From a virus (taxonomy: Duplodnaviria; Heunggongvirae; Uroviricota; Caudoviricetes): a DNA stretch of 64,000 bases. Position numbers and translations under genes: made by a program. Below are positions 22,543-45,534 of this stretch, one piece after another. The notes under the pieces are model-generated. The model had not been told where the DNA came from and searched no databases. It saw only the letters and a list, made by a program, of their open reading frames with translations. How positions within the stretch are numbered: position 1 is the first letter of the stretch; the number at the start of each line of letters is the position of its first letter. The DNA is taken from positions 1 through 64,000 of IMG/VR virus record IMGVR_UViG_3300044991_001838. One strand, given 5' to 3'.

Positions 22543-22548
22543 CAATAC

Positions 22549-23243: not shown

Positions 23244-23317
23244 GACCTCTTAGCTCAGTTGGCTAGAGCACTTCACTTTTAATGAAGGAGTCCCGAGTTC
23301 GAGTCTCGGAGGGGTCA
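23244..23317 (+). tRNA. tRNA-Lys (UUU)
   Basis: Acceptor GACCTCT/AGGGGTC, D-arm GCTC-AGTTGGCTA-GAGC, anticodon arm CTTCA-CTTTTAA-TGAAG, T-arm CCGAG-TTCGAGT-CTCGG. Confidence 0.85.
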
Positions 23318-23333
23318 CAAAAAAATAGAAATT

Positions 23334-23576
23334 ATGATACCAAAAAATGAAATGGTTGAAGGTTGGTACAATGGATTTTGTAGGAACAACCACATGGCAT
23401 ATTGGGACGGAGAAAAGTTCCAATACATCCGATATAAGTTCGGGTTCCAATTGGATACCATAGAACATTTTGAGGATGTTAAAGATAAAGGGTTTGACGG
23501 GTTTGTACCTGTTGAAAGAATTGAAAGAATTCCTATCGATAAACAATGGGAAGTTAAAAAAGAAATAGGATATTAA
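23334..23576 (+). CDS. hypothetical protein
   Basis: 80-aa ORF. Confidence 0.45.
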   Translation: MIPKNEMVEGWYNGFCRNNHMAYWDGEKFQYIRYKFGFQLDTIEHFEDVKDKGFDGFVPVERIERIPIDKQWEVKKEIGY

Positions 23577-23577
23577 A

Positions 23578-23856
23578 ATGAAAGAGATTGATTATTTCCG
23601 AAAAATATTAAAACATCAAAACCCAATTTATTATAGTGGGGTTAGAATTACCACTGAAGTTAAAAACATTTATGGGGAACCTGGAATTAATAACATTGTT
23701 GTTGGAAAATTGAGAAAAATTATAATCCAATTTCCTGGAAATTCAGGTAATCTTTATTCCAACATTAGTTCTTATATTAGGTTTGTTTGGGGAACTAATG
23801 ATGTAATTGCGGAATTTGATTTTGATGGAACTAATTATTTCAAATTTACAGTATAA
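23578..23856 (+). CDS. hypothetical protein
   Basis: 92-aa ORF. Confidence 0.45.
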   Translation: MKEIDYFRKILKHQNPIYYSGVRITTEVKNIYGEPGINNIVVGKLRKIIIQFPGNSGNLYSNISSYIRFVWGTNDVIAEFDFDGTNYFKFTV

Positions 23857-23870
23857 AAAAATAAAAAGAT

Positions 23871-24470
23871 ATGATAGATAATTTAGAGATAATAAAACCG
23901 TTGTTAAACTTTGAAGAAAAGGGTGATTTCTATATGTTGTATGTGTTTAAACGTAAGAAAGACCAACCTGAAAATGAAAGAGATAATCATCAATCGGTTA
24001 GAACAATTAAAACATATTGTATTGATTCAATTGACCATTTGGAAAGAAGGTACGATGAGGTAAAACAACTTTGTGAAATGTTTAAAGCAAGAGCTTATAT
24101 TCATATTCAAAAACAAAATCATAAAGATGTTTCTTTGGATATGTTGTCAAATTTGGCGGAAAGAATTAAGAATGGGGTTCAAAACCAAAAAGGGTTATTT
24201 GATTCAGTTGTTGGTCAAATAAAGACTAAAGAAAAAAGATGGATTGTTGATATTGATACTACTGACCCTGATTTTTTATATGAAGTCGCCGATTTTATTA
24301 AAGACCTTAGACCAATTGGATTTAAGGTTGAAAAAGTAATACCTACCAAAAATGGTAGACATTTAATTACATCTCGATTTGATGTCAAATCATTTAGTGA
24401 TAGATATCCTGAAATTGATATCCAAAAGAAGAACCCAACATTATTATATTACCCAAATAGTTTAGATTAA
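23871..24470 (+). CDS. hypothetical protein
   Basis: 199-aa ORF. Confidence 0.5.
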   Translation: MIDNLEIIKPLLNFEEKGDFYMLYVFKRKKDQPENERDNHQSVRTIKTYCIDSIDHLERRYDEVKQLCEMFKARAYIHIQKQNHKDVSLDMLSNLAERIKNGVQNQKGLFDSVVGQIKTKEKRWIVDIDTTDPDFLYEVADFIKDLRPIGFKVEKVIPTKNGRHLITSRFDVKSFSDRYPEIDIQKKNPTLLYYPNSLD

Positions 24471-24472
24471 TT

Positions 24473-24630
24473 ATGGCAACATTAGAAACACAATATAAAA
24501 ACTTTCTCTTGGAGAATCCAAATTCAAAGTTTACCTTTGACGAGTGGAAAGAATGGTTAGGAAAACAAATTGAGGAAGCCCTTAAGGATATTAAAATTAA
24601 AGAATATGGAAAAGAAATTAGGGAAAATTG
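24473..24630 (+). CDS. hypothetical small protein
   Basis: 52-aa ORF (MATLETQYKNFLLENPNSKF...) below the ORF-track cutoff, read directly from sequence. Confidence 0.3.
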
Positions 24631-24941
24631 AGTCGGTAAGTTTTGGTCTTGGTGGATATCAAGGAGCAATGTTAGGTCTTCACGTCACATTAAGTGGTGG
24701 AAGTTGGGGTGTTGGTGATTCAAGAGCCAATTGGGATTCAGAACAAATAAAATGGACGGAACACACCCAATGGTCTGAAGAAGATAGGGATGGATGGTAT
24801 TCTGAGATTATGAGATATGTTTCGACTTTACTGAAGGAAGCTAAGGTTGACTCTGTGGATAAATTAAAAGGGAAACCGGTTGAGGTTACCTTTGAAGGAA
24901 ACACATTAAAAGAATGGAGAATACTAACTGAAGTTCTTTAA
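24606..24941 (+). CDS. hypothetical Trp-rich protein
   Basis: ORF 24570..24941; start moved to MEKKLGKIE. Confidence 0.45.
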   Translation: MEKKLGKIESVSFGLGGYQGAMLGLHVTLSGGSWGVGDSRANWDSEQIKWTEHTQWSEEDRDGWYSEIMRYVSTLLKEAKVDSVDKLKGKPVEVTFEGNTLKEWRILTEVL

Positions 24942-24950
24942 ATTAGATAG

Positions 24951-25022
24951 GGTCGGTTGGCCGAGTGGCTTAGGCGGTAGTCTGCAAAACTATTCACACA
25001 GGTTCAAATCCTGTACCGACCT
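24951..25022 (+). tRNA. tRNA-Cys (GCA)
   Basis: Acceptor GGTCGGT/ACCGACC, anticodon arm GTAGT-CTGCAAA-ACTAT, T-arm ACAGG-TTCAAAT-CCTGT. Confidence 0.8.
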
Positions 25023-25028
25023 CAAAAA

Positions 25029-25073
25029 TCTTAAATTTGAGCAGTAAATACTCTTAAATTTGAGCAGTAAATA
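25029..25073 (+). repeat. perfect tandem duplication of 22-23 nt between tRNA-Cys and tRNA-Trp
   Basis: TCTTAAATTTGAGCAGTAAATA twice (25029-25050, 25052-25073). Confidence 0.8.
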
Positions 25074-25076
25074 AAT

Positions 25077-25147
25077 ACGTTTGTAGTGCAACGGTAGCAT
25101 CACGGTCTCCAACACCGTTGGTGGGGGTTCGAATCCCTCCAAGCGTG
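25077..25147 (+). tRNA. tRNA-Trp (CCA)
   Basis: Acceptor ACGTTTG/CAAGCGT, D-arm GTGC-AACGGTA-GCAT, anticodon arm ACGGT-CTCCAAC-ACCGT, T-arm GGGGG-TTCGAAT-CCCTC. Confidence 0.75.
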
Positions 25148-25449
25148 CAAAAGGTTGATTGGGGAATGATTGTACTAATAGTTCGAGAGTGAATGCCGGC
25201 TAGTACAATCGGAGTTGGGAGGTATTCACCTAAGTAACGCTAATCGTAAAAACAGATGTCCACGCAACCATCTTCTGTTTTCCTAAAAGAATTAAGACAG
25301 ACCTATAACTTACGTCAGTGGTAGTGTAGGGGTGAGGTTCGGAGTAATCAACCAAACCAAGAGACCGCCGAGGGTAAACACGGGTATGATGCCCGTCTAG
25401 TCCCCTAAGACTGAAATATCGGAGAATCCTCATTGTCTGTTTTATAATT
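25148..25449 (+). ncRNA. candidate structured stable RNA within tRNA island
   Basis: GC-rich ORF-free 300 nt; 10-bp stem GATTGTACTA/TAGTACAATC (25168-25212), hairpin ACAGATG...CATCTTCTGTTTT with U-tract, hairpin ACGGGTATGATGCCCGT. Confidence 0.35.
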
Positions 25450-25530
25450 GGGAGTGTTGAGCAATTGGTCGCTTAGCAGACTGTAAATCTGTGGTCTACG
25501 ACATTGGGGGTTCGAATCCCTCCACTCCCA
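25450..25530 (+). tRNA. tRNA-Tyr (GUA), class II
   Basis: Acceptor GGGAGTG/CACTCCC, anticodon arm GCAGA-CTGTAAA-TCTGT, 13-nt variable arm, T-arm GGGGG-TTCGAAT-CCCTC. Confidence 0.8.
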
Positions 25531-25679
25531 CAAACAAGGAAACAACCCCTGAGTTGGTAAGCGCTTATCCGGACTCAAGAGAAGTAAAGTTATCAGATGG
25601 GTGCGTAACGCCTTGGACTACTATTATTGAATGATACGAGCCTGCAAAGTTCGAAAGGAGTCAGGTAGTAGTCAATTTT

Positions 25680-25753
25680 GGACCTTTAACTCAGTCGGTT
25701 AGAGTAGCTCGCTCATAACGAGAAGGTCCCAGGTTCGAGTCCTGGATGGTCCA
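25680..25753 (+). tRNA. tRNA-Met or Ile2 (CAU), elongator-type
   Basis: Acceptor GGACCTT/ATGGTCC (one mismatch), D-arm ACTC-AGTCGGTTAGAGT, anticodon loop CUCAUAA, T-arm CCAGG-TTCGAGT-CCTGG; 1:72 paired so not initiator. Confidence 0.65.
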
Positions 25754-25759
25754 CAGTAT

Positions 25760-25830
25760 TGCCCGATGGTGTAATGGTAACACAACTGTTTTTGGTACAG
25801 TCGTTCCAAGTTCGAGTCTTGGTCGGGTAA
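25760..25830 (+). tRNA. tRNA-Gln (UUG)
   Basis: Acceptor TGCCCGA/TCGGGTA, D-stem GTGT/ACAC, anticodon arm ACTGT-TTTTGGT-ACAGT, T-arm CCAAG-TTCGAGT-CTTGG. Confidence 0.75.
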
Positions 25831-25912
25831 CTAAATAAATAAAGTATGTGGTTTTTAATTTTGTGGATTGTTTTGATGATAATTGTTAAATGGGACAATA
25901 ATCGGTAATTAG

Positions 25913-25985
25913 GGTTTTATGGTGTAACGGATTAGCACACGAATCTACGGAATTCGGAGTTTAGGTTCGAATCCTAATAGAACCT
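25913..25985 (+). tRNA. tRNA-Arg (ACG)
   Basis: Acceptor GGTTTTA/TAGAACC, D-stem GTGT/GCAC, anticodon arm CGAAT-CTACGGA-ATTCG, T-arm TTAGG-TTCGAAT-CCTAA. Confidence 0.75.
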
Positions 25986-26066
25986 CTAAACTGCGTGACT
26001 TAGAGGAAAAGAACTATCTCTCATAAGGATGGTCAATTGGGTTCGAAACCCAAACACGCAACATAT

Positions 26067-26140
26067 GGTGGCTATAGCTCAGTTGGTAGAGCGCTTGGTT
26101 GTGGTCCAAGTTGTCACGGGTTCGATTCCCGTTAGTCACC
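26067..26140 (+). tRNA. tRNA-His (GUG) with encoded G-1
   Basis: Extra 5' G pairing with discriminator C73 (His identity), acceptor GTGGCTA/TAGTCAC, anticodon arm CTTGG-TTGTGGT-CCAAG, T-arm ACGGG-TTCGATT-CCCGT. Confidence 0.85.
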
Positions 26141-26175
26141 CTAATATTTTTCATCTATACCGACTATTTATTAGT

Positions 26176-26754
26176 ATGGAAAAGAAATTAACATTAACAA
26201 AGGAACAATTATTTAAAGTGATGCACTTGAATGAGGCGGAAAACAAACCAGGTTTAACAAAGTCACCTAAATTATACTCGTTATCAGATAAGACAATTAA
26301 AATCTTAACTGATAGAATCAAAGACGAATATACTGCACATTATTATTACAGAGCGGCAACTAACTGGTGTGCGGATATGAACTACAAAAAAGCGGCAGCG
26401 TTTTTTGAAAATGAGGCAAAAGATGAATTAGGTCATTCTGAGATTTTACAACAATATATGACCGATTTCAATATTATCCCTGAAATCCCATCAGCAAAAA
26501 TTAGTCATACTTTCAATAGTTTGGAAGAAATTATTAATGGAGCTTATGAAATGGAATTGGCATTAATGAAAGCATATAACAAAGATTCACAAACAGTATT
26601 TTCTGATGATATTACAACATTTGATGTTTTAACTAAATTTAGAAAAATTCAAAAAGGTGCCGTAGTTGAGTATAACGACTTAATTAATGCATTGAGTTTA
26701 ATTGATAGTAAAGATAAGTTCCAAGTATTATACTTTGAACAAACATACTTTTAA
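26176..26754 (+). CDS. ferritin-like (non-haem ferritin) protein
   Basis: AATNWCADMNYKKAAAFFENEAKDELGHSEILQQYMTDFNIIP parallels FtnA [42 protein letters not shown]; tracked ORF start 26029 lies inside tRNA-His, so start reset to MEKKL at 26176. Confidence 0.65.
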   Translation: MEKKLTLTKEQLFKVMHLNEAENKPGLTKSPKLYSLSDKTIKILTDRIKDEYTAHYYYRAATNWCADMNYKKAAAFFENEAKDELGHSEILQQYMTDFNIIPEIPSAKISHTFNSLEEIINGAYEMELALMKAYNKDSQTVFSDDITTFDVLTKFRKIQKGAVVEYNDLINALSLIDSKDKFQVLYFEQTYF

Positions 26755-26776
26755 TATAGAAGAGATTTAAATACTA

Positions 26777-26812
26777 AATCCCTCTGATTAAAAGTCAGGG
26801 GGATTTTTTTTA
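26777..26812 (+). terminator. rho-independent terminator after ferritin gene
   Basis: ATCCCTCTGA-TTAAAAG-TCAGGGGGAT then T8. Confidence 0.7.
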
Positions 26813-26826
26813 TGGGATAAATTAAC

Positions 26827-26834
26827 TATCTTTG
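26827..26834 (+). promoter_or_regulatory. Bacteroidetes -7 element TATCTTTG upstream of tRNA-Ile
   Basis: TAnnTTTG 12 nt before tRNA 5' end; follows terminator. Confidence 0.4.
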
Positions 26835-26846
26835 TAAAAATAATAA

Positions 26847-26920
26847 TGGAATATAACTCAGTTGGTTAGAGTGTCATCCTGATACGGTGAAAGTCGATGG
26901 TTCGAGTCCATCTATTCCAA
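26847..26920 (+). tRNA. tRNA-Ile (GAU)
   Basis: Acceptor TGGAATA/TATTCCA, D-arm ACTC-AGTTGGTTAGAGT, anticodon arm TCATC-CTGATAC-GGTGA, T-arm GATGG-TTCGAGT-CCATC. Confidence 0.75.
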
Positions 26921-26921
26921 C

Positions 26922-27266
26922 ATGGAAACAACAGAAATAATAGAAAAAAAGAAAAAGGGGCATAAAGCCCAATTCAAAAAGATTGTAAAAGAATATAAAA
27001 GTGCATCAACTAAAGAAGTTTGGGAAGGTGTAAGGGATAATTTTACTTTTGGGTTCTTAGGGGCCACTTTAGTAGTTTTTATTGCAACACGTACAGATAT
27101 TGCGGTTTTAATGGGTTATTTAATATATTACTTTTTTATGGGTAAAATTGTAAATAGACCAAAATACGTAACTGATTTAGGTAAATTAATTGTATTCCCA
27201 ATACCATCCGCATTGGGCGCTTTTACAGGATATAAATTGTCATATATCTTACTACACCTAATATAA
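26922..27266 (+). CDS. membrane protein
   Basis: Two or three hydrophobic helices; possible holin-like. Confidence 0.45.
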   Translation: METTEIIEKKKKGHKAQFKKIVKEYKSASTKEVWEGVRDNFTFGFLGATLVVFIATRTDIAVLMGYLIYYFFMGKIVNRPKYVTDLGKLIVFPIPSALGAFTGYKLSYILLHLI

Positions 27267-27271
27267 TATAA

Positions 27272-27356
27272 GGAAGGTTGGCAGAGTGGTAATGCAGCGG
27301 TTTGCTAAACCGTACATCGATAAAATGATGCGAGAGTTCGAGTCTCTCATTTTCCG
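27272..27356 (+). tRNA. tRNA-Ser (GCU), class II
   Basis: Acceptor GGAAGGT/ATTTTCC disc G, anticodon arm GCGGT-TTGCTAA-ACCGT, 17-nt variable arm, T-arm GAGAG-TTCGAGT-CTCTC. Confidence 0.75.
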
Positions 27357-27440
27357 CAGAAAAAATATGTAAGAAAAATTGACATATCAGTATAGTTCTT
27401 GTATATTTATAATCTAATAATAAATAAAACAAAAAAAATT

Positions 27441-31771: not shown

Positions 31772-32917
31772 ATGGGTAAAATTAAATTAAGTGAGTCTGA
31801 ATTAATTCAGGTTATTAAAAGAATTGTTAAAGAATCTGATGATGAGTCAAATGGACCAAACGACAATTTTGTTATTGCCTTAAGAAATTATGCTAAAGGT
31901 AAAATCACTAAAGATGATTTATATGACATTGATGATTCCATATACTATATTGAACCCAAAACACCTTTAGGTCAAACAATGTTAACTATAGAGTTTAAAA
32001 ATGAAGAAGAACTTTTAAATTTACTTGAGATGAGTGATGATGACATATGGTTTATGAGAGCATTAAATGGATATGACGGTTATGACTTTATGGACTCATA
32101 TCAAATAGAGCAAGATTTTAAAGATGGGTATGGTGTGTACGGTGAGTTAGATGAAGAAAATGTAGATAAACTTAAAGACCTCTCTTCAATTCTTTTATCG
32201 GGTAAAGAATTTGATTTAACTAATGAAGATTTTAAAATTGCATTATCTCAAATTTTATTAGATGTGTTTCCAAAAGAAATTGACTACATCCTTGGTGATT
32301 TTGAAATGGAAAAAGAAAGTGAAATGAATGCTGTTGCCAATAAAGTAATTAAAGAAGAATTTGATGATGTTTTATTAAGTGTTGGAGCAAACATTAATAG
32401 TGGATTTGATAGGATTGATATAAAATTGTCGGATTTGTATGCTGCTGCTTTACAATCAAATTTATACAATGGTGATGCCAAAGAATTAGTTGCTAGTGTA
32501 CTTAAAAGGGCTAGTGATAATAACGGTGGAGGTGGTCAATTTGGTGGGTGGTATGAAAACAGTTATGAATATCAAGACCCTGAGTATTTTGATTCAAAAT
32601 CTTTCAATAACTATGTGGGTAGACAATTTGATGAAATGTTAGAAAGTTTGGAGTCAAACAGTGATGAGATTAATGGTGGAATAAAAGAATATTTAGATTT
32701 TAGAACTCGTATAACTTCTAAATTCAAATTAAATAGTTGGTACGACTTACCTAAAGACAAAAAATACAGATTTCAGATTAAAGAATTTGATAGAAATGAT
32801 ATGAAAATCATTGTTGAATTACAAACACCTCTTGGATTTAAAAAAGTTAAATTAAGTGAGGAAAATTTTAATCATTTATTATATCAACCTTCATTATTTA
32901 ATTTGGAAGAAATCTAA
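31772..32917 (+). CDS. hypothetical acidic protein
   Basis: 381-aa ORF. Confidence 0.5.
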   Translation: MGKIKLSESELIQVIKRIVKESDDESNGPNDNFVIALRNYAKGKITKDDLYDIDDSIYYIEPKTPLGQTMLTIEFKNEEELLNLLEMSDDDIWFMRALNGYDGYDFMDSYQIEQDFKDGYGVYGELDEENVDKLKDLSSILLSGKEFDLTNEDFKIALSQILLDVFPKEIDYILGDFEMEKESEMNAVANKVIKEEFDDVLLSVGANINSGFDRIDIKLSDLYAAALQSNLYNGDAKELVASVLKRASDNNGGGGQFGGWYENSYEYQDPEYFDSKSFNNYVGRQFDEMLESLESNSDEINGGIKEYLDFRTRITSKFKLNSWYDLPKDKKYRFQIKEFDRNDMKIIVELQTPLGFKKVKLSEENFNHLLYQPSLFNLEEI

Positions 32918-32937: not shown

Positions 32938-33780
32938 ATGACACAAAATATAGACTTACTAAAGGAAGTACTTAGCGTTCCTAGTAAAACATACAAAGAA
33001 GACCTTATGGTTGAATTTTTGGTTAATTGGTTAACTGAAAACAATATTGAACATTATGTTGATGAAAACAAAAATGTTTATGCGACAAAAAAAGAAAATT
33101 CGGAATTACCTGAAGATTTCTTTTTCCCATGCGTGATTTCCCACACAGACACAGTTCATGATTTAGATACAATCATTGTTCATGAAGAACAATTATTAAA
33201 TGCTCAAGGTGAAGTTAAAGATTCACTTAAAGCATACAATCTACACGGTCTTCCTACAGGGATTGGTGGTGATGATAAATGCGGAGTTTTTGCTTGTTTA
33301 ACATTACTTAAAGAATTACCGTATTTGAAAGCGGCATTCTTTGTATCTGAAGAAACTGGTTGTCATGGTTCTAAAAAAGCAGACCCTGAGTTCTTTACCA
33401 ATGTTGGTTATGGGATTCAATTTGACGCTCCTGAGAATTGGATGATTACTGAAAAATGTTTTGGTCAAATTTTATTTGATAGAGAAACAGAATTCTTTGA
33501 AAAAATTGACCAAGTATTAACTGAGGGAATGGTTAAAGAAGACATGCAATACATGGTCCATCCATATACCGATGTTTATGCCTTGAGAAACAAATTTGAT
33601 TTTTCTTGTATTAACTTCTCAATTGGATATTACAATTACCACACACCAAACGAGTATGTTGTTATTGAGGATGTATTCAATGGAATTGAAATGGGTAGAA
33701 AAATGATTGAGGGATTAGGTTATAGATTACACTATAAAAAGTCAGTTCAATATGACCCAATGAGTAGATTTGTTAGATAA
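32938..33780 (+). CDS. M20/M42-clan zinc exopeptidase-like protein
   Basis: VISHTDTVHD (HxD), GIGGDDKCGVFA (GxxDxKxG), FVSEETGCHGS (EE) metal-site blocks. Confidence 0.6.
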   Translation: MTQNIDLLKEVLSVPSKTYKEDLMVEFLVNWLTENNIEHYVDENKNVYATKKENSELPEDFFFPCVISHTDTVHDLDTIIVHEEQLLNAQGEVKDSLKAYNLHGLPTGIGGDDKCGVFACLTLLKELPYLKAAFFVSEETGCHGSKKADPEFFTNVGYGIQFDAPENWMITEKCFGQILFDRETEFFEKIDQVLTEGMVKEDMQYMVHPYTDVYALRNKFDFSCINFSIGYYNYHTPNEYVVIEDVFNGIEMGRKMIEGLGYRLHYKKSVQYDPMSRFVR

Positions 33781-34441
33781 AATTTTCTAACTTATCAATA
33801 TATCGTTTAACCATCGGGTGGTCTTGAATATCTTCATATTCTCCTCCCGATTTTTTTATGTCTTTAATTCCGTTAACAATTTGTTGTAAATGACCTCTGA
33901 CCATTTTAGACATTAAAGGATATTTTTCAATAAATAGGGAAAGTGAAAATAAATTTTTTGCAATATCTATTGGAATTTCTAATTTAATCACAATTTTTGC
34001 AACCATATTTTTTGCAAATTGGTCGGCATCTAATTCCATCTCCCAATATTGGTCGGCAAGATTCTCAAAATCTTCCAAGTCAAATTCAGTTAATGGGTTT
34101 AACATTTTTAAATCACGAACTTGATGCTCATGTCTAATTTCGTGAAAAATTGTGTAAAGAAAATCCCCAATAGTTGACATTTGTGTTGGAGAACAAATTA
34201 TAACTTGGTCCTTAGTTCTAACACCTGAAAACCCTGTTGAACAAGAATTAAGAAATTTAACATTAATATTATTTTTTTGGATATAATCTGAAATGAATTT
34301 ACCAATTATTGGTACTTTAGATTTTAAATCGTCAGGAAATTGGGATTTAAAATGATTCATTAATCTATCAAGATTTGATTGAGATTTTATCTCATTATTT
34401 TCAAATGTTTCTTTAATAATTTTTTTAATCAAATCTTTCAT
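33773..34441 (-). CDS. HExxH zinc metallopeptidase-like protein
   Basis: FHEIRHEHQVRDL HExxH with downstream acidic residue. Confidence 0.5.
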   Translation of the reverse strand: MKDLIKKIIKETFENNEIKSQSNLDRLMNHFKSQFPDDLKSKVPIIGKFISDYIQKNNINVKFLNSCSTGFSGVRTKDQVIICSPTQMSTIGDFLYTIFHEIRHEHQVRDLKMLNPLTEFDLEDFENLADQYWEMELDADQFAKNMVAKIVIKLEIPIDIAKNLFSLSLFIEKYPLMSKMVRGHLQQIVNGIKDIKKSGGEYEDIQDHPMVKRYIDKLENFI

Positions 34442-34453
34442 TATTATAAATAT

Positions 34454-34486
34454 AAAAAAAGGGGGAATTAAATTCCCCCTTTTTTA
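34454..34486 (-). terminator. terminator downstream of ClpC-like gene
   Basis: A7-GGGGGAATT/AATTCCCCC-T6 palindrome. Confidence 0.65.
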
Positions 34487-36499
34487 TTATCTACCTTTTT
34501 TCTGAATTTTAACCTCATCATTATCTACCTTGATAACATAAGATTTACCTTCAATCATTTTACCAAGAAGAACTTCTTCTGATAATAAATCCTCAACCTT
34601 ATCTTGAATTGCTCTTTTCAAAGGTCTTGCCCCGTATAATTCATCAAATCCAATTTTGGATAGGTAATCAACCAATGTTGAATCATAAGTTACTTTGTAC
34701 TTCATATCACTAAGACGAACAGTTAATTTTTTTAACTCAATCTCTGTGATTTTTTTGATATCATCAATAGTCAAAGAGTTAAATACGATAGTATCGTCAA
34801 TACGGTTAATAAATTCAGGTGAGAAAAAGTTTTTCATCTCTTTCATCAATACTTGTTTCTTTGCCTCTTCATTTGAATAAGGGTTATTAGAAAATCCAAT
34901 ACCTGTACCAAAATCTTGTAATTTCTTAACACCCAAATTTGAAGTTAGGATAATCAAAGTATTTTTAAAATTAATCTTACGACCTAAACTATCAGTCACA
35001 TGACCATCATCCAAGATTTGAAGTAAAACTGTAAACACATCTTTGTGTGCTTTTTCTACCTCATCAAATAAGATAACAGAGTAAGGTCTGTTCTTAACTT
35101 TTTCAGTTAATAATCCACCTTCTTCATAACCAACATATCCTGGAGGTGCTCCAACCAATTTAGAAATACTGTGTTTCTCTTGGTACTCAGACATATCCAC
35201 ACGAATAAGAGAATCCTCAGAGCCAAACATTTCTTTAGCTAATTGTTTGGCCAAGTGAGTTTTACCAACACCTGTTGACCCTAAGAACACAAATGAACCT
35301 ATTGGACGATTTGGGTCTTTGATACCCAAACGGTTTCTTTTAATAGATTTTGCAATTTTAATAACCGCTGCGTCCTGACCAATCACTTTACCTATCAACT
35401 CTTTATCCAAGTTTAATAAAGCCTTAGTATCATCAACATTCATTTTGCTTACAGGAATCTTAACCATATTAGAAACCACATCATAAACATCTTCCAAATT
35501 AACTTTTTGTTTATTTTCTGACATAGACTCTTCAAACTTAAGTTTTTCAGATTCCAATTTGGCCAAAACTTTTTTCTCTTTGTCCCTTAATTGGGCCGCC
35601 TGTTCGTAGTTTTGTTTTTTAACAACATCAATTTTTTGTTGTTTAATCTCCGAAGCATCCTTTTTTAATTTCTCAATTATTTCAGGAACCTTAAGCTCGG
35701 TTTGCATACGAGCACCAACCTCATCCAAGATATCAAATGCTTTATCAGGAAATTCTCTATCTGTGATATATCTATCCGCCAATTTAACACAAGCTTCAAT
35801 AACCTCATCGTTATAAATGACTTTATGAAATGACTCATACTTGTCACGAACATTTTTAAGGATTTCAATTGTCTCAACAACAGATGATGGTTCAACAATT
35901 ACTTTTTGGAATCTTCTTTCCAATGCTCCGTCTTTCTCAATATTCTTACGGAACTCATCAAGGGTAGTTGCACCAATACATTGAAGTTCACCACGAGATA
36001 ATGCGGGTTTGAAAATGTTTGAACCATCCATTGACCCTGAAGAATTACCAGAACCTACTAATGTGTGAATCTCATCAATAAACACAATAATGTTTGGGTT
36101 ATCACGAAGTTCTTCAATAATCACTTTCATTCTTTCTTCAAATTGACCACGATACTTTGTACCTGCAACAACTGAAGTTAAATCTAAGTTTACAATTCTT
36201 TTATCAACCAAGTTTCTCGGACATTCTCCGGTAACAATTTTAATTGCCAATCCCTCAACCAAAGCGGTTTTACCACAACCAGGTTCTCCAATGATAATAG
36301 GGTTATTTTTCTTTCTACGAGATAAGATTTGTGCAATTCTTAAAATCTCTTTGTCACGACCAATTACGGGGTCTAATTTACCTTCCTCAGCAAGTCTATT
36401 CAAATCTCTACTAAAGTTATCTAAAACAGGTGTACTGCTTTCTGATTGAGATTGTTTTTTACTCATTGTTTTGTCGTCGTCATCCATTAAGTCGTTCAT
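34487..36499 (-). CDS. clpC: Clp/Hsp100 AAA+ unfoldase, ClpC/ClpA-like, lacking N-domain, with ClpP-docking IGF loop
   Basis: D1 Walker A GEPGCGKT and B IVFIDEIH; linker with UVR-like motif YEQAAQLRD; D2 Walker A GSTGVGKT and B ILFDEVEKAH; GTGIGFSNNP IGF loop; C-terminal GARPLKRAIQ. Confidence 0.85.
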   Translation of the reverse strand: MNDLMDDDDKTMSKKQSQSESSTPVLDNFSRDLNRLAEEGKLDPVIGRDKEILRIAQILSRRKKNNPIIIGEPGCGKTALVEGLAIKIVTGECPRNLVDKRIVNLDLTSVVAGTKYRGQFEERMKVIIEELRDNPNIIVFIDEIHTLVGSGNSSGSMDGSNIFKPALSRGELQCIGATTLDEFRKNIEKDGALERRFQKVIVEPSSVVETIEILKNVRDKYESFHKVIYNDEVIEACVKLADRYITDREFPDKAFDILDEVGARMQTELKVPEIIEKLKKDASEIKQQKIDVVKKQNYEQAAQLRDKEKKVLAKLESEKLKFEESMSENKQKVNLEDVYDVVSNMVKIPVSKMNVDDTKALLNLDKELIGKVIGQDAAVIKIAKSIKRNRLGIKDPNRPIGSFVFLGSTGVGKTHLAKQLAKEMFGSEDSLIRVDMSEYQEKHSISKLVGAPPGYVGYEEGGLLTEKVKNRPYSVILFDEVEKAHKDVFTVLLQILDDGHVTDSLGRKINFKNTLIILTSNLGVKKLQDFGTGIGFSNNPYSNEEAKKQVLMKEMKNFFSPEFINRIDDTIVFNSLTIDDIKKITEIELKKLTVRLSDMKYKVTYDSTLVDYLSKIGFDELYGARPLKRAIQDKVEDLLSEEVLLGKMIEGKSYVIKVDNDEVKIQKKGR

Positions 36500-36667
36500 A
36501 TATTTCTAATTTTTTACAAAGTAATAACAAATATTATACTTATCCAAATTAATTGTCAAATTGTCAGATAAATATTTTTGGTATGACATATTGACATATT
36601 ATTTAATTTGGTATATTATTTGAATACCACAAAGGTAAGTAATAAAATTAAATAAAAAAAATAAATT

Positions 36668-37054
36668 ATGTTTGGAAACAGAAAAAACTTTAACGACCTG
36701 TTCAAATCATTTGACGATATGTTTGAACAATTAAACCTAAACACCGGTGAATGGAAAACAAAAACCAGAACATCCGAAGACGGTTCAATTAAAGTCACTA
36801 CGCATTATTGGAGTAATGACCCTAAAGAATCAAGACCATCAAATGAATTTGAGAAATTGCAATCTCAATTAAATGTCGCAATTGAAAATGAAGATTTTGA
36901 ATCTGCCGTTAAACTTAGAGATTCAATTAAAAAATTAGAATCAAACAAGAAGGTTATTGATAAACTTGAGTTAGAATTGAGAGAATCTATTAAAGAACAA
37001 AACTTTGAAAAGTCAATTGAACTTAGGGACAAGTTGAAAAACTTGAAAAAGTAA
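36668..37054 (+). CDS. tandem UVR-domain protein (candidate Clp adaptor)
   Basis: Two UvrB/C-type motifs: EDFESAVKLRDSIKKLE and QNFEKSIELRDKLKNLKK; divergent from ClpC-like gene. Confidence 0.55.
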   Translation: MFGNRKNFNDLFKSFDDMFEQLNLNTGEWKTKTRTSEDGSIKVTTHYWSNDPKESRPSNEFEKLQSQLNVAIENEDFESAVKLRDSIKKLESNKKVIDKLELELRESIKEQNFEKSIELRDKLKNLKK

Positions 37055-37058: not shown

Positions 37059-37086
37059 AAACCCTCACCAAACGGTGAGGGTTTTA
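37059..37086 (+). terminator. rho-independent terminator
   Basis: CCCTCACC-AAAC-GGTGAGGG then TTTT. Confidence 0.65.
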
Positions 37087-37097: not shown

Positions 37098-37430
37098 ATG
37101 AAACCATTTGAAAATTTTTTAAATAGTAGTGTAGGGCTACAACGAATAATTGAAATATATGTTAAGATGAGACGATATTTTCAATCGGAAGGATGGAGTG
37201 AAAGGGATTTAGAAAAACCTCCATATTATTCACCTCAATTAATGTCTCTTCATCAAAATTTTAGTAATGAATTAAAAGATTTACTTCAACAAGTAAAAGA
37301 TTATGGTTTAGAAATAGATGGAGAAGAATTTAATGAATATTTAAAACCAATACTATCTAAAATAGATGAAATAACACCACTAAAAAATGGCAATTACAAA
37401 AGAGGAAATCAAAGGGACGAAGATTATTAA
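37098..37430 (+). CDS. hypothetical protein
   Basis: 110-aa ORF. Confidence 0.45.
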   Translation: MKPFENFLNSSVGLQRIIEIYVKMRRYFQSEGWSERDLEKPPYYSPQLMSLHQNFSNELKDLLQQVKDYGLEIDGEEFNEYLKPILSKIDEITPLKNGNYKRGNQRDEDY

Positions 37431-37629
37431 TGAAATCAAATCGTCAAACATTAGAAAAACAGAATACGATACTGAAACAAGTAGTTTAATCGTAGAATTT
37501 AACAATGGGCTGAGATATGAATATGAGTCTGTACCACATCAAGTCTACACTGCATTTAGAAAATCCGAGTCTCAAGGAAAACATTTTACAACAGATATAT
37601 CAAAAAAGTACAAGTATAAGAAACTGTAG
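37387..37629 (+). CDS. KTSC-domain protein
   Basis: YDTETSSLIVEFNNGLRYEYESVPHQVYTAFRKSESQGKHF fits the KTSC domain pattern. Confidence 0.5.
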   Translation: MAITKEEIKGTKIINEIKSSNIRKTEYDTETSSLIVEFNNGLRYEYESVPHQVYTAFRKSESQGKHFTTDISKKYKYKKL

Positions 37630-37641: not shown

Positions 37642-38373
37642 ATGAGCAACTTCCAACAAATACTTAATAGTTTTTCAATTAAGAAGACTTTAAACCCAAA
37701 AGTTTGGGAAAATTCCAATGACCCTGACAAAGCAACTATGGTTCCTAAGGTTAGAAAGGCTCTTGAACGTATTGCCGATGAATTTATTGAATATCTTGGA
37801 GATGACGTATTTGTTGAAGATGTTGTACTTACAGGTTCTTTGGCGAACTTTAATTGGTCTGAATTTTCAGACTTTGACCTTCATATCATTGTTGACATAC
37901 AACAATACGAAGATGATTCTGAATTATACAAAGAATTATTTAATTTAAAAAAACAAGTTTTCAACGATAAGCATAACATTAAAATATTTGGGTATGATGT
38001 TGAATTATACGCACAAGATTCCGAAGAATCTCACTACGCGTCAGGAGTTTATTCAATAATGAATAATGAATGGGTTACCAAGCCAAAACAATTTAAAATA
38101 GAGATAGATAAAGATTTGTTATCAAATAAAATTAAAAATTGGACTGAAAAAATTGATAAAGCTCTTGAGTCTGATGAACAAAAAACTTTAGATGATATTA
38201 AAAACAAATTAAAAGAATATAGACAATCGGGTCTTGAAAAAGAAGGAGAATTGTCTTATGAAAATTTAGTTTTTAAATTTTTACGAAGGTCTGGTCATAT
38301 TCAAAAACTATTTGATAAGGCAAATAATGTCGTAGATAAAGAACTTTCTATTGAGAGAAAAATGGAAGACTAA
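37642..38373 (+). CDS. nucleotidyltransferase (Pol-beta superfamily) protein
   Basis: LTGSLANFNWSEFSDFDLHIIVD: the G[SG] and DxD signature of minimal nucleotidyltransferases. Confidence 0.5.
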   Translation: MSNFQQILNSFSIKKTLNPKVWENSNDPDKATMVPKVRKALERIADEFIEYLGDDVFVEDVVLTGSLANFNWSEFSDFDLHIIVDIQQYEDDSELYKELFNLKKQVFNDKHNIKIFGYDVELYAQDSEESHYASGVYSIMNNEWVTKPKQFKIEIDKDLLSNKIKNWTEKIDKALESDEQKTLDDIKNKLKEYRQSGLEKEGELSYENLVFKFLRRSGHIQKLFDKANNVVDKELSIERKMED

Positions 38374-38428: not shown

Positions 38429-39790
38429 ATGGCTTTAGTTACATATCTTATAGGCGCTTGTACAGGCGGACCAGCAAAATTAATTGATTTTGATAGCTCA
38501 TCGTTACCTGCAGTTAATGGAAATTATTATTTAACATTTACTGGTGGTACAACACCTGGATGTTATGATATCATTGACAACGCAGAACCTAACACAGGTA
38601 CTGACACTGTATTAACTATATCAATTGATTATGGTGATTGTGTGACTTGTCAAGCGGTTGTTACACCAACACCTACCGTTACAACTACTAATACTGCAAC
38701 GCCTACTGTTACAACTACTAATACTGCAACTCCAACAAATACTACAACAAATACTGCAACTCCAACAAATACTACAACAAATACCGCAACTCCGACACCA
38801 ACAGTAACACCAACAAATACTCAAACACCAACTAACACATCAACTAGTACTCCTACACAAACTAAAACACCAACTCCAACTAACACTGCAACTAATACTG
38901 CAACACCAACTAACACTGCAACTAATACTGCAACACCAAGTAATACACCAACTATATCGGTAACACCAAGTAACACTCCTAATGTTTGTAAAACATATAA
39001 CTTATATGGTGGAACTGGTAATACAACTTTTATTTATAAAGACTGTGACGGATTTATAAATACAGTACAAGTACAAGCTTATCAAACATTGGTGGTTTGT
39101 TCTACAGAAATAACAATTATTAATGGTGATGGTTATTATGTTTCAATAGGGTCATGTCCATTACCGACACCAACACCAACAGCAACACCAACAAATACTG
39201 CAAGTAATACACCGACACCATCAGTTACTTCAACAGTAACTTCAACACCTACTCAAACACAAACTAAAACACCTACAAATACGCCTACTCAAACTCAAAC
39301 GCAAACTCAAACACCTACGCAAACTCAAACTCAAACTCAAACTCAAACACCTACACAAACTCAAACTAAAACACCTACAAATACACCAACTCAAACTAAA
39401 ACACCGACAAATACACCAACTCAAACTAAAACTCCAACAAATACACCAACTCAAACTACGACCCCAACGAATACACCAACAAAAAGCGGTACTCCTAATG
39501 TAACATCTACTAATACTGCAACACCAACAAAAACTCCAACAAATACACCAACAGGAACACCTGCAAATACACCTGCAGTGACTCCTTCACCAACACCAAC
39601 ATATTGGTTTACAGGATTCTCGGCTGACCAACAATACGCATACACTATTGAAATTTTAGGTGATTTTAGTGGTGGAACGGCGCCTGCAGGAGCAATTGCA
39701 CCTCACCCGATATTTACAAATAATGAGGGAATACCTGTAGCACAATTAAACGCAATCACTATTGGAGGTTTCCAAGGATTAAATAGTTAA
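38429..39790 (+). CDS. Thr/Pro-rich tandem-repeat (mucin-like) protein, probable virion fibre or decoration protein
   Basis: Dozens of TPTNT/TPTQTQTKTPTNT repeats flanking a Cys-containing globular insert and C-terminal domain. Confidence 0.55.
   Translation: MALVTYLIGACTGGPAKLIDFDSSSLPAVNGNYYLTFTGGTTPGCYDIIDNAEPNTGTDTVLTISIDYGDCVTCQAVVTPTPTVTTTNTATPTVTTTNTATPTNTTTNTATPTNTTTNTATPTPTVTPTNTQTPTNTSTSTPTQTKTPTPTNTATNTATPTNTATNTATPSNTPTISVTPSNTPNVCKTYNLYGGTGNTTFIYKDCDGFINTVQVQAYQTLVVCSTEITIINGDGYYVSIGSCPLPTPTPTATPTNTASNTPTPSVTSTVTSTPTQTQTKTPTNTPTQTQTQTQTPTQTQTQTQTQTPTQTQTKTPTNTPTQTKTPTNTPTQTKTPTNTPTQTTTPTNTPTKSGTPNVTSTNTATPTKTPTNTPTGTPANTPAVTPSPTPTYWFTGFSADQQYAYTIEILGDFSGGTAPAGAIAPHPIFTNNEGIPVAQLNAITIGGFQGLNS
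38680..39560 (+). repeat. coding tandem repeats (ACN/CCN-rich) in Thr/Pro-repeat protein gene
   Basis: Iterated acaccaacaaatact / actcaaactcaaac units. Confidence 0.75.
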
Positions 39791-39817: not shown

Positions 39818-41056
39818 ATGGCAGATTTAAAACCAATTGGAAGTGAAAAACTTCAAGGTCAAGATAAATTAAATAGAATAATGGAAATTGCTCGTTTTAA
39901 CGAGACAATTCCTAGTAGAATAAATGAAACTGCGAAAACTGAATATAACAGAACTTTAGCCGATGGTAATAACTATGAAATCGTGAAAGAAAGACAAGGA
40001 TATATTCTTAAAAGAACTATTACTGAATCTGGAACTGATTATATGGAACCGATGAAAAATAGAAAATATTATTCATCGTATTCTCAAGCGTTAAAAAGAT
40101 TAAATCTTGTTGCCGGAGAATTAAATAGGATTAATGAAAATGAGACTGAAGTTTCAATGTTTGGTGAACAAAAAAAATTCACATTAAAAACTCCAAAACC
40201 TGCACCTTCAATGGCTCCACCAATGGCTCCACCAATGGCTCCACCAATGGCACCACCAGCAATTCCTGCACCTGAATTACCTGCATCTCCAACTTCTGAT
40301 TTAGGAGGAGAAGATGATTTTAACATGGATATTGATTCTGAAGAAATGGGTCCTGAAGGAGACGTTGATGTTAATGATGATATTGACATTGAAGAACCAA
40401 GTGGGGATGACGATGTTGTTACTTTTAAAACAATTCAAAAACTTACAGGTAAGTTAACTCAAAAAATTAGAACATTAGAAAACGAAGAAGGAATGACTTC
40501 TGAAGATATCAAATATGTAATCAATATGGTTATTTCATCTTTAGAGTTAAGTTCTTTAAGTGAAGAAGATAAAGATGATATTATTGATAAATTTGAAGAA
40601 GATGAAACTGATGAATTTGGTCAAGAAGACGATATGGATGGTGAAGATTTTACCGATGATACTGAAGTTGAAGATATCCAATCTGACATGGACATTCCAA
40701 TGGAAGGTGAAGTGGATGAAGAAGATGATTTTGGAAATGGTGCAATATTAGACCATATTTTTGGAGAATCTAAAGTTGACAAAGTGTTGTCAAAATATTT
40801 TGAAGTTTCTAAAAAAGAAATTTTAGAAAATAGAGAAAAAAATGCTAATAAAAATTTAACAAAAATTTCTGAAGTTAGAAAAAAAATGGGTGAGGTTGTT
40901 AAATTAACTGAAACTATTGAACAAGAATTGGCTTCTCAAAAATTTTTAGAAAAAAATTCTTTGGCAAAAATTGTTGGTAAAACCAATAAAGATAATTTAG
41001 TATTTGAAAATAAAGGAAAACAAGTAAGAATAACACCTAAAGGACAAATTTTGTAA
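39818..41056 (+). CDS. hypothetical acidic protein with (APPM)n repeat
   Basis: SMAPPMAPPMAPPMAPPAIPAP then long D/E-rich region. Confidence 0.5.
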   Translation: MADLKPIGSEKLQGQDKLNRIMEIARFNETIPSRINETAKTEYNRTLADGNNYEIVKERQGYILKRTITESGTDYMEPMKNRKYYSSYSQALKRLNLVAGELNRINENETEVSMFGEQKKFTLKTPKPAPSMAPPMAPPMAPPMAPPAIPAPELPASPTSDLGGEDDFNMDIDSEEMGPEGDVDVNDDIDIEEPSGDDDVVTFKTIQKLTGKLTQKIRTLENEEGMTSEDIKYVINMVISSLELSSLSEEDKDDIIDKFEEDETDEFGQEDDMDGEDFTDDTEVEDIQSDMDIPMEGEVDEEDDFGNGAILDHIFGESKVDKVLSKYFEVSKKEILENREKNANKNLTKISEVRKKMGEVVKLTETIEQELASQKFLEKNSLAKIVGKTNKDNLVFENKGKQVRITPKGQIL

Positions 41057-43773: not shown

Positions 43774-45534
43774 GTGACTAAAGAACAATTAATGATAGAA
43801 GTAACGAAGTGTTTGAGGAATACTCCTTATGCACTTCGTACTTATTTACAGACTTACGATAACACCGTATCCAAATACGTTCCGTTAGACTTATTTCCAG
43901 ACCAAGTAACCCTTATAGAAGATTACGATAACCACAATGAAAATGTTGCCTTAAAGTACCGACAGGCAGGGGTTTCAACAGTTACTGCCGCTTGGGCATC
44001 AAAAAAACTAGCTTTTGCCAAAAAAACCAAACCTGAAAAAATTCTAATCATTGCCAACAAATTAGATACTGCTATGGAGATGGCAAATAAGGTTAGAGGA
44101 TTTACTGAACAATGGCCTGCTTGGGTTGGAGTTGGATTTTCTCAGGAAAAAAATGCTCAACGACATTTTAAATTAACAAATGGTTGTGAGGTTAAAGCCG
44201 TTGCAACATCCCGAGATGCCTTGAGGGGTTATACCCCAACCATTCTAATATTTGATGAGGCTGCGTATATTGAAGCTGACGGAGATTTTTGGGCGGCTTG
44301 TATGGCATCCTTATCCACAGGGGGTAAGGTAATTGTAGTATCCACCCCAAACGGATATGACCCAATTTATTATGAAATCTATGACCAATCATTGAGAGGA
44401 ATGAATGATTTCAAAATTACTGAAATGTTTTGGTACCGTGACCCAAGATATACAAAAGATTTGTATATGGTCAAAACAAACGATTTAGTCCATTTTTTAT
44501 TGAATAGAGAAGAATATAACCTTGATGAGGTAATCATTGATTTATCAATGAGTAATCCATACGAGAGGGACCATTCAATAGTAACCGATTATGTTGAGCA
44601 AGGATACAAACCATGTTCTGCTTGGTTTGAAGGAATGGTTAAAAAATTAAAATACGATAGACGTAAGGTTGCTCAAGAGTTAGAATGTAACTTTTTGGGT
44701 TCAGGGGATAATGTATTTGATTCTGAAATGATGACAGACATATCTAAAAACCAAGTTAAAGACCCAATTGCAAAAATGATGGGTGGTGGACTTTGGATTT
44801 GGAAAGAACCTGTTAATGGTCATAAATATGTTATGGGTGTTGATGTATCTCGTGGAGATTCTGAGGATTTTTCTTGTATTCAAATTATTGATTTTGATGC
44901 AAGAGAACAAGTTTTAGAATATGTTGGAAAAATACCACCAGATATTTTGGCGGAAATTGCTTATAAATGGGGTACAATGTACAATGCTTATTGTGTAGTT
45001 GATTTAACAGGAGGTATGGGAGTTGCAACAGCTAGAAAAATGCAAGAGATGGGTTATCAGGCAGGAATGTACGTTGATAACGTCGATACAACAAACAAAT
45101 GGAAGTTTGACCCTAAGATGAATGAGAAGATACCTGGTATTAACTTTAACAATAAAAGGGTTCAAATTATCGCATCGTTTGAAGAATCTATGAGACATAA
45201 ATTTAGAATTTATTCAAGTAGACTTTATAACGAGATGAATACGTTTGTTTACATTAATGGTAGACCTGACCACCAAAAAAATCATCATGATGATTGTATC
45301 ATGAGTATTTCTATGGCAATATACGTTGCGGAGAAATCTTTCCAATCTTTAGAAAAGGTTGTGAACCATACCAAAGCGATGTTAAATTCATGGTCAAGTG
45401 TTATGAATGAGAATAAAAACACATCAGAATATTTTAATCCACTTGTTCCTCAAATGGGAAGACAATTCCCAATAAATCAAGGTCCATCCCGAGCCGACTA
45501 TGAAAAATACTCTTGGTTATTTCATTCACGATAA
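43774..45534 (+). CDS. terL: terminase large subunit
   Basis: ATPase Walker B ILIFDEAAYI, VVSTPNG; C-terminal nuclease region GVDVSRGDSEDFSCIQII; T4 gp17-like organisation. Confidence 0.75.
   Translation: MTKEQLMIEVTKCLRNTPYALRTYLQTYDNTVSKYVPLDLFPDQVTLIEDYDNHNENVALKYRQAGVSTVTAAWASKKLAFAKKTKPEKILIIANKLDTAMEMANKVRGFTEQWPAWVGVGFSQEKNAQRHFKLTNGCEVKAVATSRDALRGYTPTILIFDEAAYIEADGDFWAACMASLSTGGKVIVVSTPNGYDPIYYEIYDQSLRGMNDFKITEMFWYRDPRYTKDLYMVKTNDLVHFLLNREEYNLDEVIIDLSMSNPYERDHSIVTDYVEQGYKPCSAWFEGMVKKLKYDRRKVAQELECNFLGSGDNVFDSEMMTDISKNQVKDPIAKMMGGGLWIWKEPVNGHKYVMGVDVSRGDSEDFSCIQIIDFDAREQVLEYVGKIPPDILAEIAYKWGTMYNAYCVVDLTGGMGVATARKMQEMGYQAGMYVDNVDTTNKWKFDPKMNEKIPGINFNNKRVQIIASFEESMRHKFRIYSSRLYNEMNTFVYINGRPDHQKNHHDDCIMSISMAIYVAEKSFQSLEKVVNHTKAMLNSWSSVMNENKNTSEYFNPLVPQMGRQFPINQGPSRADYEKYSWLFHSR

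Follow-up and report, generated by a model that had tools for sequence, protein, structure and literature searches.

Does a phage that carries a ClpC-type unfoldase with peptidase-like genes around it run a protein-degradation system of its own, and what might feed it? The question arises at positions 32,938-37,054 of a 64,000-nucleotide stretch of phage DNA of ~31% G+C (positions 1-64,000 of IMG/VR record IMGVR_UViG_3300044991_001838; we call this whole stretch the window), where genes for the unfoldase, a divergently transcribed protein with tandem UVR motifs, a HExxH protein and a peptidase of M20/M42 type lie side by side. An initial annotation had read them, together with a ClpP encoded elsewhere in the window, as a self-contained proteolysis module, and its coordinates were exact for all four open reading frames. 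Our analysis favors, with a probability of roughly 0.6, the reading that a proteostasis island encoded by the phage has its core here, consisting of a ClpC-ClpP protease, a trimming peptidase, a variable feeder slot and a co-regulated set of chaperones, with the UVR protein as a cofactor.

The unfoldase matched the Pfam families AAA, AAA_lid_9, AAA_2 and ClpB_D2-small, and a UVR motif at residues 283-311 scored just below threshold (20.7 bits, with the cut-off at 21.5). A single alignment block spanned residues 147-802 of S. aureus ClpC (E = 1.7e-223), whereas the alignment to ClpB broke into two; the middle domain (M-domain) is therefore of the short ClpC type. Ring 1 contains GEPGCGKT (Walker A), FIDEIH (Walker B) and the pore loop KYRG, ring 2 contains GSTGVGKT (Walker A), LFDEVEK (Walker B) and the pore loop GYVG, and GARP is also present. 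Each ATPase or pore motif was kept in 119-130 of 130 distinct relatives. The segment GTGIGFSNN aligned opposite the S. aureus ClpP loop 'FAGFGGS', and the ClpP-docking tripeptide was retained in 128 of the 130 relatives (IGF in 78, VGF in 49, LGF in 1); Walker motifs, pore loops and the [I/V/L]GF loop are thus all conserved on alignment. An N-domain of ~146 residues is missing: the alignment begins at S. aureus ClpC residue 147, Pfam found no Clp_N match in the protein, and all but one of the 130 relatives are 616-708 residues long (the exception has 766), so that the loss is family-wide. The conserved N-terminus of the relatives is a short acidic tail and, because just 168 bp of intergenic DNA lie upstream of the window's gene, the N-domain has not been split off into a separate gene. 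Pfam, the alignment and the 130 relatives all bear out the initial annotation, which had described a lost N-domain with a retained IGF loop and UVR-like linker.

The nearest cellular ClpC proteins (56-59% identity) are almost all from Bacteroidota, mostly Flavobacteriales; they are 800-900 residues long, retain the N-domain and carry VGF or IGF, so the phage gene looks like a Bacteroidota clpC that has lost its N-domain. In NCBIfam the phage protein stayed under the equivalog cut-offs for ClpB (822 bits against 1232) and ClpA (717 against 993). Since Bacteroidota are the nearest source, an earlier analogy to the ClpC adaptors of Firmicutes may not transfer. A tyrosine in the phage M-domain sits at the position that we take to be that of S. 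aureus F436 and is aromatic in both proteins. Bacterial ClpC (S. aureus and B. subtilis, PDB 6em8 and 3j3s; M. tuberculosis ClpC1) shares with the phage protein the two rings, the KYRG and GYVG loops, the UVR-type M-domain and the [I/V]GF loop. The phage protein differs in having no N-domain, and hence no site for MecA, McsB, ClpS or phospho-arginine, and it differs from Firmicutes ClpC in being phage-encoded and apparently of Bacteroidota origin. To our knowledge, the N-domain is the route of all well-studied ClpC adaptors. Even when it lacks the N-domain, ClpC1 can unfold an SsrA-tagged protein, with regulation through the middle domain (PMC6274998). We also observed a ClpC without N-domain (707 residues, VGF loop, 56% identity; L001 7929-10052) among glycosyltransferase-like genes of LR756502, an unrelated 642-kb uncultured phage, and N-domain loss may recur among phages.

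The ClpP of the window scored 190 bits against Pfam CLP_protease (cut-off 20.2), aligned over its whole length with solved cellular ClpPs (E = 2e-47) and contains GMAASMG (Ser), MLHQ (His) and RD (Asp). In NCBIfam it scored 241 bits with the best ClpP model and 69 with the model for ClpP-related head maturation proteases, the ClpP models remaining under their equivalog cut-offs (NF011091, 241 bits against 361; TIGR00493, 189 against 308.6). By these alignments it is a divergent ClpP of the cellular type with an intact catalytic triad. A phage ClpP had been placed 19 kb from the unfoldase gene; it is present with its triad, at a distance of 18.2 kb. Relatives carry ClpP and ClpC on the same contigs, ~20-30 kb apart, wherever the contig is long enough for both. 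We presume that ClpP is the partner of the ClpC-like ATPase, a Ser-His-Asp ClpP being the partner in the bacterial ClpC-ClpP system as well. In the mechanism that we propose, the two phage proteins would assemble through the IGF loop into an ATP-dependent protease that, because the N-domain is missing, would lie beyond the control of N-domain-binding adaptors or tags. On the strand of ClpP, genes for an HNH endonuclease (165 residues) and a 110-residue acidic protein precede it (16301-17163, - strand), and a GGGTCAATATTGACCC hairpin lies upstream at ~17200-17216.

The gene divergent from ClpC varies among relatives. Of 80 ClpC-anchored loci scanned with a hidden Markov model, 38 contained the UVR gene, in every case beside ClpC and transcribed away from it; of 80 DnaK-anchored loci, 13 did, and there the gene immediately preceded the phage dnaK on the same strand in every case. 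One locus (L284) has the full arrangement, in which the M20-like gene and ClpC are followed, divergently from ClpC, by UVR and then DnaK. In 19 of the 80 ClpC loci the slot is taken by an HSP20 gene (Pfam, 4.6e-14), and none of these has UVR there as well. A tally of 125 distinct ClpC sequences, biased by how the loci were fetched, gave UVR in 69 cases, HSP20 in 17, DnaK in 17, UVR plus DnaK in one, and an empty slot in 21. Examples are the HSP20 gene at L002 5402-5803 (- strand), with 18 other ClpC loci, and the slots at L063 3958-5814 and L284 3992-6228. We propose that this is a variable 'feeder' position, which would be occupied by tandem-UVR, HSP20 or DnaK depending on the relative.

Units of both kinds, slot genes and ClpC, have a dyad of the TGACA-N3-TGTCA type upstream. 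Among the relatives scanned for it (range L002-L321), 77 of 78 DnaK loci had the dyad ahead of dnaK or of the UVR-dnaK pair, where its usual distance to the first start codon was 80-130 nt, and 56 of 78 ClpC loci had it ahead of ClpC. Elsewhere it was rare, with 107 matches in the 809 kb of the DnaK loci, and the open reading frames just 3' of 205 exact dyads were almost all ClpC (110 loci), UVR (98), DnaK (51) or HSP20 (9). The dyad is followed by TGGCAyA-N4-TTTG and then by an A-rich leader. This element fits sigma-54-like (GG-N10-GC) and Bacteroidota sigma-A (TTG-N20-TAnnTTTG) promoters each imperfectly and depending on the copy, and sigma-70-like hexamer matches within 36500-36667 of the window coincide with the dyad and element sites. 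The UVR gene and ClpC are bounded by clusters of terminator-like hairpins (9 such sites in the region against 2.2 expected), and because one of them directly follows the UVR gene, that gene is a single-gene unit in the window phage. From its distribution, the dyad looks like the operator of a phage heat-shock-like regulon, and promoters carrying it would drive all feeder and ClpC units as one co-regulated set. A composite of the dyad half-sites with different spacing was found upstream of Bacteroidota clpC in 5 of 72 loci, compared to 0 of 1338 control windows; these five cellular loci (L413, L429, L436, L450 and L453) read as Flavobacterium or Flavobacteriaceae. In these loci, TTGTCAATTnnCTGACA and then GGnAnnGTTTTTG (GG-N10-GC-like) stand ahead of clpC, 46-50 nt from its start codon. 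The resemblance of the phage dyad to a host-like stress promoter is suggestive only.

HSP20 and DnaK are classic partners of ClpB-type disaggregation, and their presence in the slot raises the possibility that the ClpC-like ATPase is mainly a ClpP-independent unfoldase or disaggregase, similar to ClpB, which folds or rescues phage proteins together with these chaperones while ClpP and the peptidases are unrelated to it. ClpB is also the top NCBIfam score of the protein, and ClpP is distant and without the common dyad. We nevertheless consider this explanation unlikely, as the [I/V/L]GF loop kept by nearly all relatives is absent from ClpB, the M-domain has ClpC length and aligns accordingly in one stretch to ClpC but two to ClpB, and ClpP is maintained on ClpC contigs wherever these are long enough to show both. 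The second M-domain motif of ClpB binds Hsp70 and is missing where the M-domain has ClpC length. Like the network of small heat-shock proteins, DnaK and ClpB, these phages encode HSP20, DnaK and an Hsp100 together, here with a promoter element in common, but the phage Hsp100 is of the ClpC type, has a ClpP loop and lacks the Hsp70-binding motif in its short M-domain, and nothing in the classical network corresponds to the tandem-UVR protein.

The most constant neighbor of ClpC is the M20-like gene, which is adjacent in nearly all loci, down to ~60% ClpC identity, and remains so through flips of its own orientation and the loss of other flanking genes. Its 280-residue product fell below the Pfam gathering thresholds for M42 (21.7 bits against 23.2) and M20 (21.9 against 24.6), with part of each profile covered, and matched Peptidase T with the DDK and EE motifs aligned. 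Residues H69, D71, D112, E138, E139, D163 and H235 were at least 97% conserved in 111 sequences. By comparison with MH-clan peptidases we take H69, D112, E139, D163 and H235 to be metal ligands and E138 to be the catalytic glutamate, and the H-x-D, D, EE, D, H pattern is that of a predicted clan MH dinuclear site. This ligand pattern is shared with the M42 TET, M20 and M28 aminopeptidases that act downstream of ATP-dependent proteases, but the phage enzyme is smaller, scores under the Pfam cut-offs and may have a deacylase role; the M20 lid/dimerisation domain or M42 PDZ-like domain is absent, because its length and ligand spacing leave no room. By analogy with these aminopeptidases, it is plausible that the M20-like enzyme finishes peptide breakdown, trimming peptides released by ClpP so that amino acids would be recycled.

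The HExxH protein, whose HEIRH motif is invariant in 24 homologues, is probably a zincin-like metallopeptidase. It matched no Pfam, NCBIfam, PHROG or PDB-sequence family, and a full-library search with its profile returned 55 clusters, mostly fragments, with no informative domains in the distant relatives. The gene lies directly 3' of ClpC in nearly all of 79 loci. In about one-third of the homologues in alignment A1 (P0181, P0235, P0256 and others), a 30-residue CxxC...CxxC zinc ribbon is inserted close to the N-terminus, giving forms of 252 residues, one of which was mislabelled by the Joint Genome Institute (JGI) as ribosomal protein S27AE. A second, unannotated HExxH protein (343-350 residues, HETNH or HEFNH) is encoded just upstream of dnaK or the UVR-dnaK pair in 16 DnaK loci, for example at L289 3818-4870 (+ strand) and L155 4727-5773 (+ strand); BLASTP and hhalign revealed no kinship with the window's HExxH protein.

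These neighborhoods could also reflect nothing other than conserved gene order, with the 'module' an artefact of reading adjacent annotations and the metallopeptidase-like genes unrelated, for instance a metabolic deacylase and a host-takeover protease. We regard this as quite unlikely. The UVR gene occurs in two contexts, beside ClpC and as a unit with dnaK, and the dyad is common to ClpC, DnaK and HSP20, so that synteny alone is not enough as an explanation; the adjacency of ClpC and the M20-like gene, moreover, outlasts inversions and the loss of other flanking genes. Consistent with gene order alone are the facts that the shared order is confined to relatives of a single family, that the ClpC of LR756502 has none of these neighbors, that a terminator-like hairpin follows ClpC, that the M20-like gene has a convergent orientation and resembles deacylases no less than peptidases, and that genes for a KTSC-domain protein and a nucleotidyltransferase, with no link to proteolysis, are equally constant.

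The tandem-UVR protein had been described as a divergent 128-residue protein with two UVR motifs, and Pfam UVR matched it twice. It is not a fragment of another gene: 325-593 homologues of 123-171 residues are encoded on phage contigs as conserved stand-alone open reading frames, with a conserved tandem core and a variable N-terminal helix and hairpin (alignments A2 and A3). An AlphaFold2 model (predicted local distance difference test, 69) has helix 8-21, hairpin 28-48 and helices 60-73, 77-109 and 113-127, the two UVR helical hairpins sharing a long central helix. The family profile matched the UVR motif of McsA (PDB 8wtb; E = 6e-5, its best solved match), the UvrB C-terminus (2e-4) and the ClpC M-domain (0.01), and did not match ClpB. 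The names 'McsA' and 'UvrB' that JGI had assigned automatically are motif-level mislabels. Identity with McsA was rejected, as the protein has no cysteine and reached 38 bits in NCBIfam against a cut-off of 210, with only the UVR part matched, and identity with UvrB or UvrC was rejected at 32 bits against 750, again through the UVR motif only in a protein of 128 residues. We saw no McsB homologue among the open reading frames of the window that were scanned, in which no dedicated search was run. The N-terminus of the UVR protein, MFGNRKNFNDLFKSF (window 36668-36730), resembles that of the HSP20 that occupies the same slot, MIYGNSELNDLFDTIF (L002 5402-5803); this likeness of MFGNxxNFNDLF to MIYGNSELNDLF had a BLASTP E-value of 0.11 and an hhalign score of 16.5 compared to a maximum of 14.9 in 30 column shuffles, which is marginal and a lead only, and it is possibly a trace of domain replacement.

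Known UVR-domain proteins offer a comparison: such proteins are selectively trapped with chloroplast CLPC1, and CLPF is an adaptor (PMC8889267). In plant CLPF, EXE1/2 and UVR2-4 (PMC8889267) and in bacterial McsA (PDB 8wtb), the UVR motif accompanies ClpC-type chaperones, as it does in the phage protein, which differs from them in having a tandem UVR and no YccV, DUF151 or zinc-finger domain and no cysteine. SPO1 Gp53 is, like the UVR protein, small and phage-encoded and is proposed or shown to act on ClpC, being an adaptor-like modulator of host ClpC (PMC6873191). Gp53 acts on the host ClpC of a Firmicute, whereas the window phage brings its own ClpC and ClpP; none of our searches recovered Gp53 as a relative, and no direct comparison with Gp53 was run. 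From the alternation in the slot and the common dyad, the tandem-UVR protein is most likely a chaperone-network cofactor, whose hairpins would make contacts, most likely coiled-coil ones of the UVR-UVR type, with the UVR-type M-domain of ClpC, Hsp70 or both, and would tune ClpC or pass on substrates. A more specific version, which we hold to be doubtful but worth stating, is that it acts as a free-standing, M-domain-like coupling factor that replaces the N-domain/adaptor route and feeds proteins held by small heat-shock proteins or DnaK to the phage ClpCP, with ClpC, UVR, DnaK and HSP20 forming a regulon under their own operator.

UVR domains pair with each other in UvrB-UvrC, and the protein could instead be aimed at the host as a decoy for UVR contacts, either in the UvrB-UvrC handover of nucleotide excision repair or at the M-domains of host ClpC or ClpB. 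The second UVR motif has its best match in the UvrB C-terminal domain (E = 2e-4 to 2.6e-3), there are weak NCBIfam matches to UvrB and UvrC, and phage modulators of host ClpC are known (PMC6873191). These UvrB-type matches are weak, however, and reflect a generic UVR motif, no repair genes were seen near the UVR gene, and its context is always that of chaperone genes with a promoter element in common, all of which makes a host decoy very unlikely. A role for the ClpP homologue as the protease of capsid (prohead) maturation, with no connection to the ClpC-like ATPase, is scarcely credible, for although the protein's best PHROG families are labelled 'head maturation protease' (phrog_94, 5e-36), its end-to-end alignment with cellular ClpP, full triad and NCBIfam scores argue otherwise, some 30 kb separate it from the portal and capsid genes, and it is not needed for head maturation because a separate T4-type protease is encoded at 48910-49626 (phrog_207, 1e-42).

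Several observations weigh against the proteostasis reading or parts of it. ClpP is 18 kb from ClpC and has no dyad directly upstream; the dyad matches in ClpP loci are mostly in coding sequence, and ~18 that sit ~950 bp upstream have no counterpart in the window. The M20-like gene likewise has no dyad directly upstream, is convergent with the HExxH gene, begins 20 bp after another gene, and has weak NCBIfam matches that span peptidases and deacylases, which sequence cannot tell apart. The HExxH gene is restricted to close relatives (at least 55% identity) and is parted from ClpC by a strong terminator-like hairpin. The UVR gene is missing in about half of the ClpC-bearing relatives; therefore ClpC does not need it. 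ClpC columns tied to the presence of UVR were not concentrated in the M-domain, and close ClpC pairs discordant for UVR had no excess of M-domain divergence (relative divergence of 1.96 compared to 2.01 in concordant pairs). Helix packing in the UVR model is of low confidence (predicted template-modelling score of 0.34), and Foldseek found no PDB match to it at E ≤ 0.001. Finally, gene order conserved inside one virus family is by itself weak evidence for a functional link.

The claims of the initial annotation fared unevenly under these tests. A ClpC-ClpP pair is encoded and conserved in a large family, as a proteolysis module would have it, but the HExxH protein fits less well: it is adjacent and its motif is invariant, yet its narrow distribution, its lack of family matches and the intervening hairpin make it, in our view, a lineage-specific accessory whose link to the system is weak and unproven. 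The M20/M42-like enzyme holds its place by its conserved MH-clan ligands and constant proximity to ClpC, with its convergent orientation, lack of a dyad and deacylase matches on the other side. For the UVR protein as an adaptor candidate, the genomic context speaks in favor, through its adjacency to ClpC or dnaK, the slot alternation and the common dyad, whereas co-variation with the M-domain was null twice. The annotation had also proposed that host proteolysis is retargeted; HSP20 and DnaK as neighbors speak at least as strongly for quality control or recycling. Coordinates of the features are collected in the table.

Table. Features of the window discussed in the text (positions in the window; aa, amino acids; a dot marks a feature without strand).
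Feature	Position	Strand	Basis or remark
Minimal MH-clan (M20/M42/M28-like) dinuclear metallopeptidase, 280 aa	32938-33780	+	PHROG 4191 'peptidase', 5e-32
Orphan HExxH protein, 222 aa	33773-34441	-	HEIRH motif
Terminator-like G+C hairpin between ClpC stop and HExxH start	34455-34485	-	T runs on both strands
Class I Hsp100 unfoldase of ClpC type, N-domain absent, 670 aa	34487-36499	-	Pfam, PHROG, alignment to S. aureus ClpC
Divergent regulatory region ClpC/UVR	36500-36667	.	Two dyads and TGGTATATTATTTGA element
TGACA-N3-TGTCA-type dyads	36553-36567 and 36583-36597		Conserved in diverged relatives
TGGTATATTATTTGA element ahead of UVR gene	36609-36623		
Tandem-UVR protein, 128 aa	36668-37054	+	Pfam UVR, two matches, E = 4.8e-14
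Terminator-like hairpin right after UVR gene	37059-37084	+	
KTSC-domain protein	37387-37629	+	
Pol-beta-type nucleotidyltransferase	37642-38373	+	
ClpP proteolytic subunit, 226 aa	15567-16247	-	Pfam CLP_protease, 3.5e-56
Large terminase	43774-45534		
Portal	45572-47428		
T4-type head maturation protease	48910-49626		Between portal and major capsid protein; phrog_207, 1e-42
T4-type major head protein	51671-53473		

A megablast search of the locus against deposited phages gave no match, and relatives exist at the protein level only; IMG/VR holds hundreds of related contigs, the longest of 326 kb. Gene order in this family runs nucleotidyltransferase, KTSC, (110-residue protein), slot, ClpC, (HExxH), M20-like, 381-residue protein, and ClpC, ClpP and the M20/M42-like peptidase are conserved throughout. 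Linkage to ClpC is as constant for the KTSC and nucleotidyltransferase genes as for the M20-like gene, and a role for them in proteolysis is not evident. Beyond them, on the + strand, the window encodes a 453-residue protein that consists mostly of Thr/Pro-rich repeats (TPTNT, TQTQ; 38429-39790) and then a highly acidic 412-residue protein with a (PPMA)4 repeat (39818-41056). A cluster of 22 tRNA genes at 17881-27357 (+ strand) has anticodons for 19 of the 20 amino acids, with alanine left out. Several unrelated proteins begin with a similar amphipathic motif (LSESELIQVIKRIVKE, LTESDLTRLVKKVLSEE and MKDLIKKIIKETFEN; window 31772-31830, 58100-58160 on the - strand and 34390-34441 on the - strand, and L289 3818-3890), which is possibly a targeting or recognition signal.

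The host of this freshwater jumbo phage is probably a member of the Bacteroidota. As described (Arch Virol 2025; PMC12619734), moraphages are freshwater jumbo phages with T4-like structural genes and predicted Bacteroidota (Flavobacteriia) hosts; a 'ClpA' ATPase and a 'putative peptidase' are among their core gene groups, and some carry DnaK, DnaJ and HSP20, the DnaK being of Flavobacteriales origin. The jumbo freshwater type, the T4-like genes, the ClpA/peptidase core and the occasional DnaK and HSP20 are as in the window's relatives, and the window phage likely belongs to the moraphage lineage, a match of described features rather than of sequences. That paper lists the genes, and its accessible part does not describe the N-domain loss, the pairing with ClpP, the tandem-UVR protein, the slot or the dyad (PMC12619734).

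Phage ClpC-like ATPases, ClpP and chaperones are thus already catalogued, in PHROGs and in the moraphage paper (PMC12619734), but have hardly been studied. A literature search gave no specific description of a phage ClpC-ClpP-UVR system or of a Bacteroidota heat-shock operator, and in the sources as far as they were accessible we found no account of family-wide N-domain loss with the IGF loop kept, of the tandem-UVR family, of a slot shared by UVR, HSP20 and DnaK or of the common dyad. The locus offers a compact natural experiment, in which hundreds of environmental variants place ClpC beside interchangeable partners, and the dyad is a concrete handle on the regulation of such phage gene sets. 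If the M-domain is where the UVR protein regulates or feeds ClpC, it would be a minimal trans-acting regulator of Hsp100 machines, it would parallel the UVR-domain partners of chloroplast CLPC, themselves poorly understood, and it would hint at the way in which large phages keep up protein quality control or reuse host protein in nutrient-poor waters.

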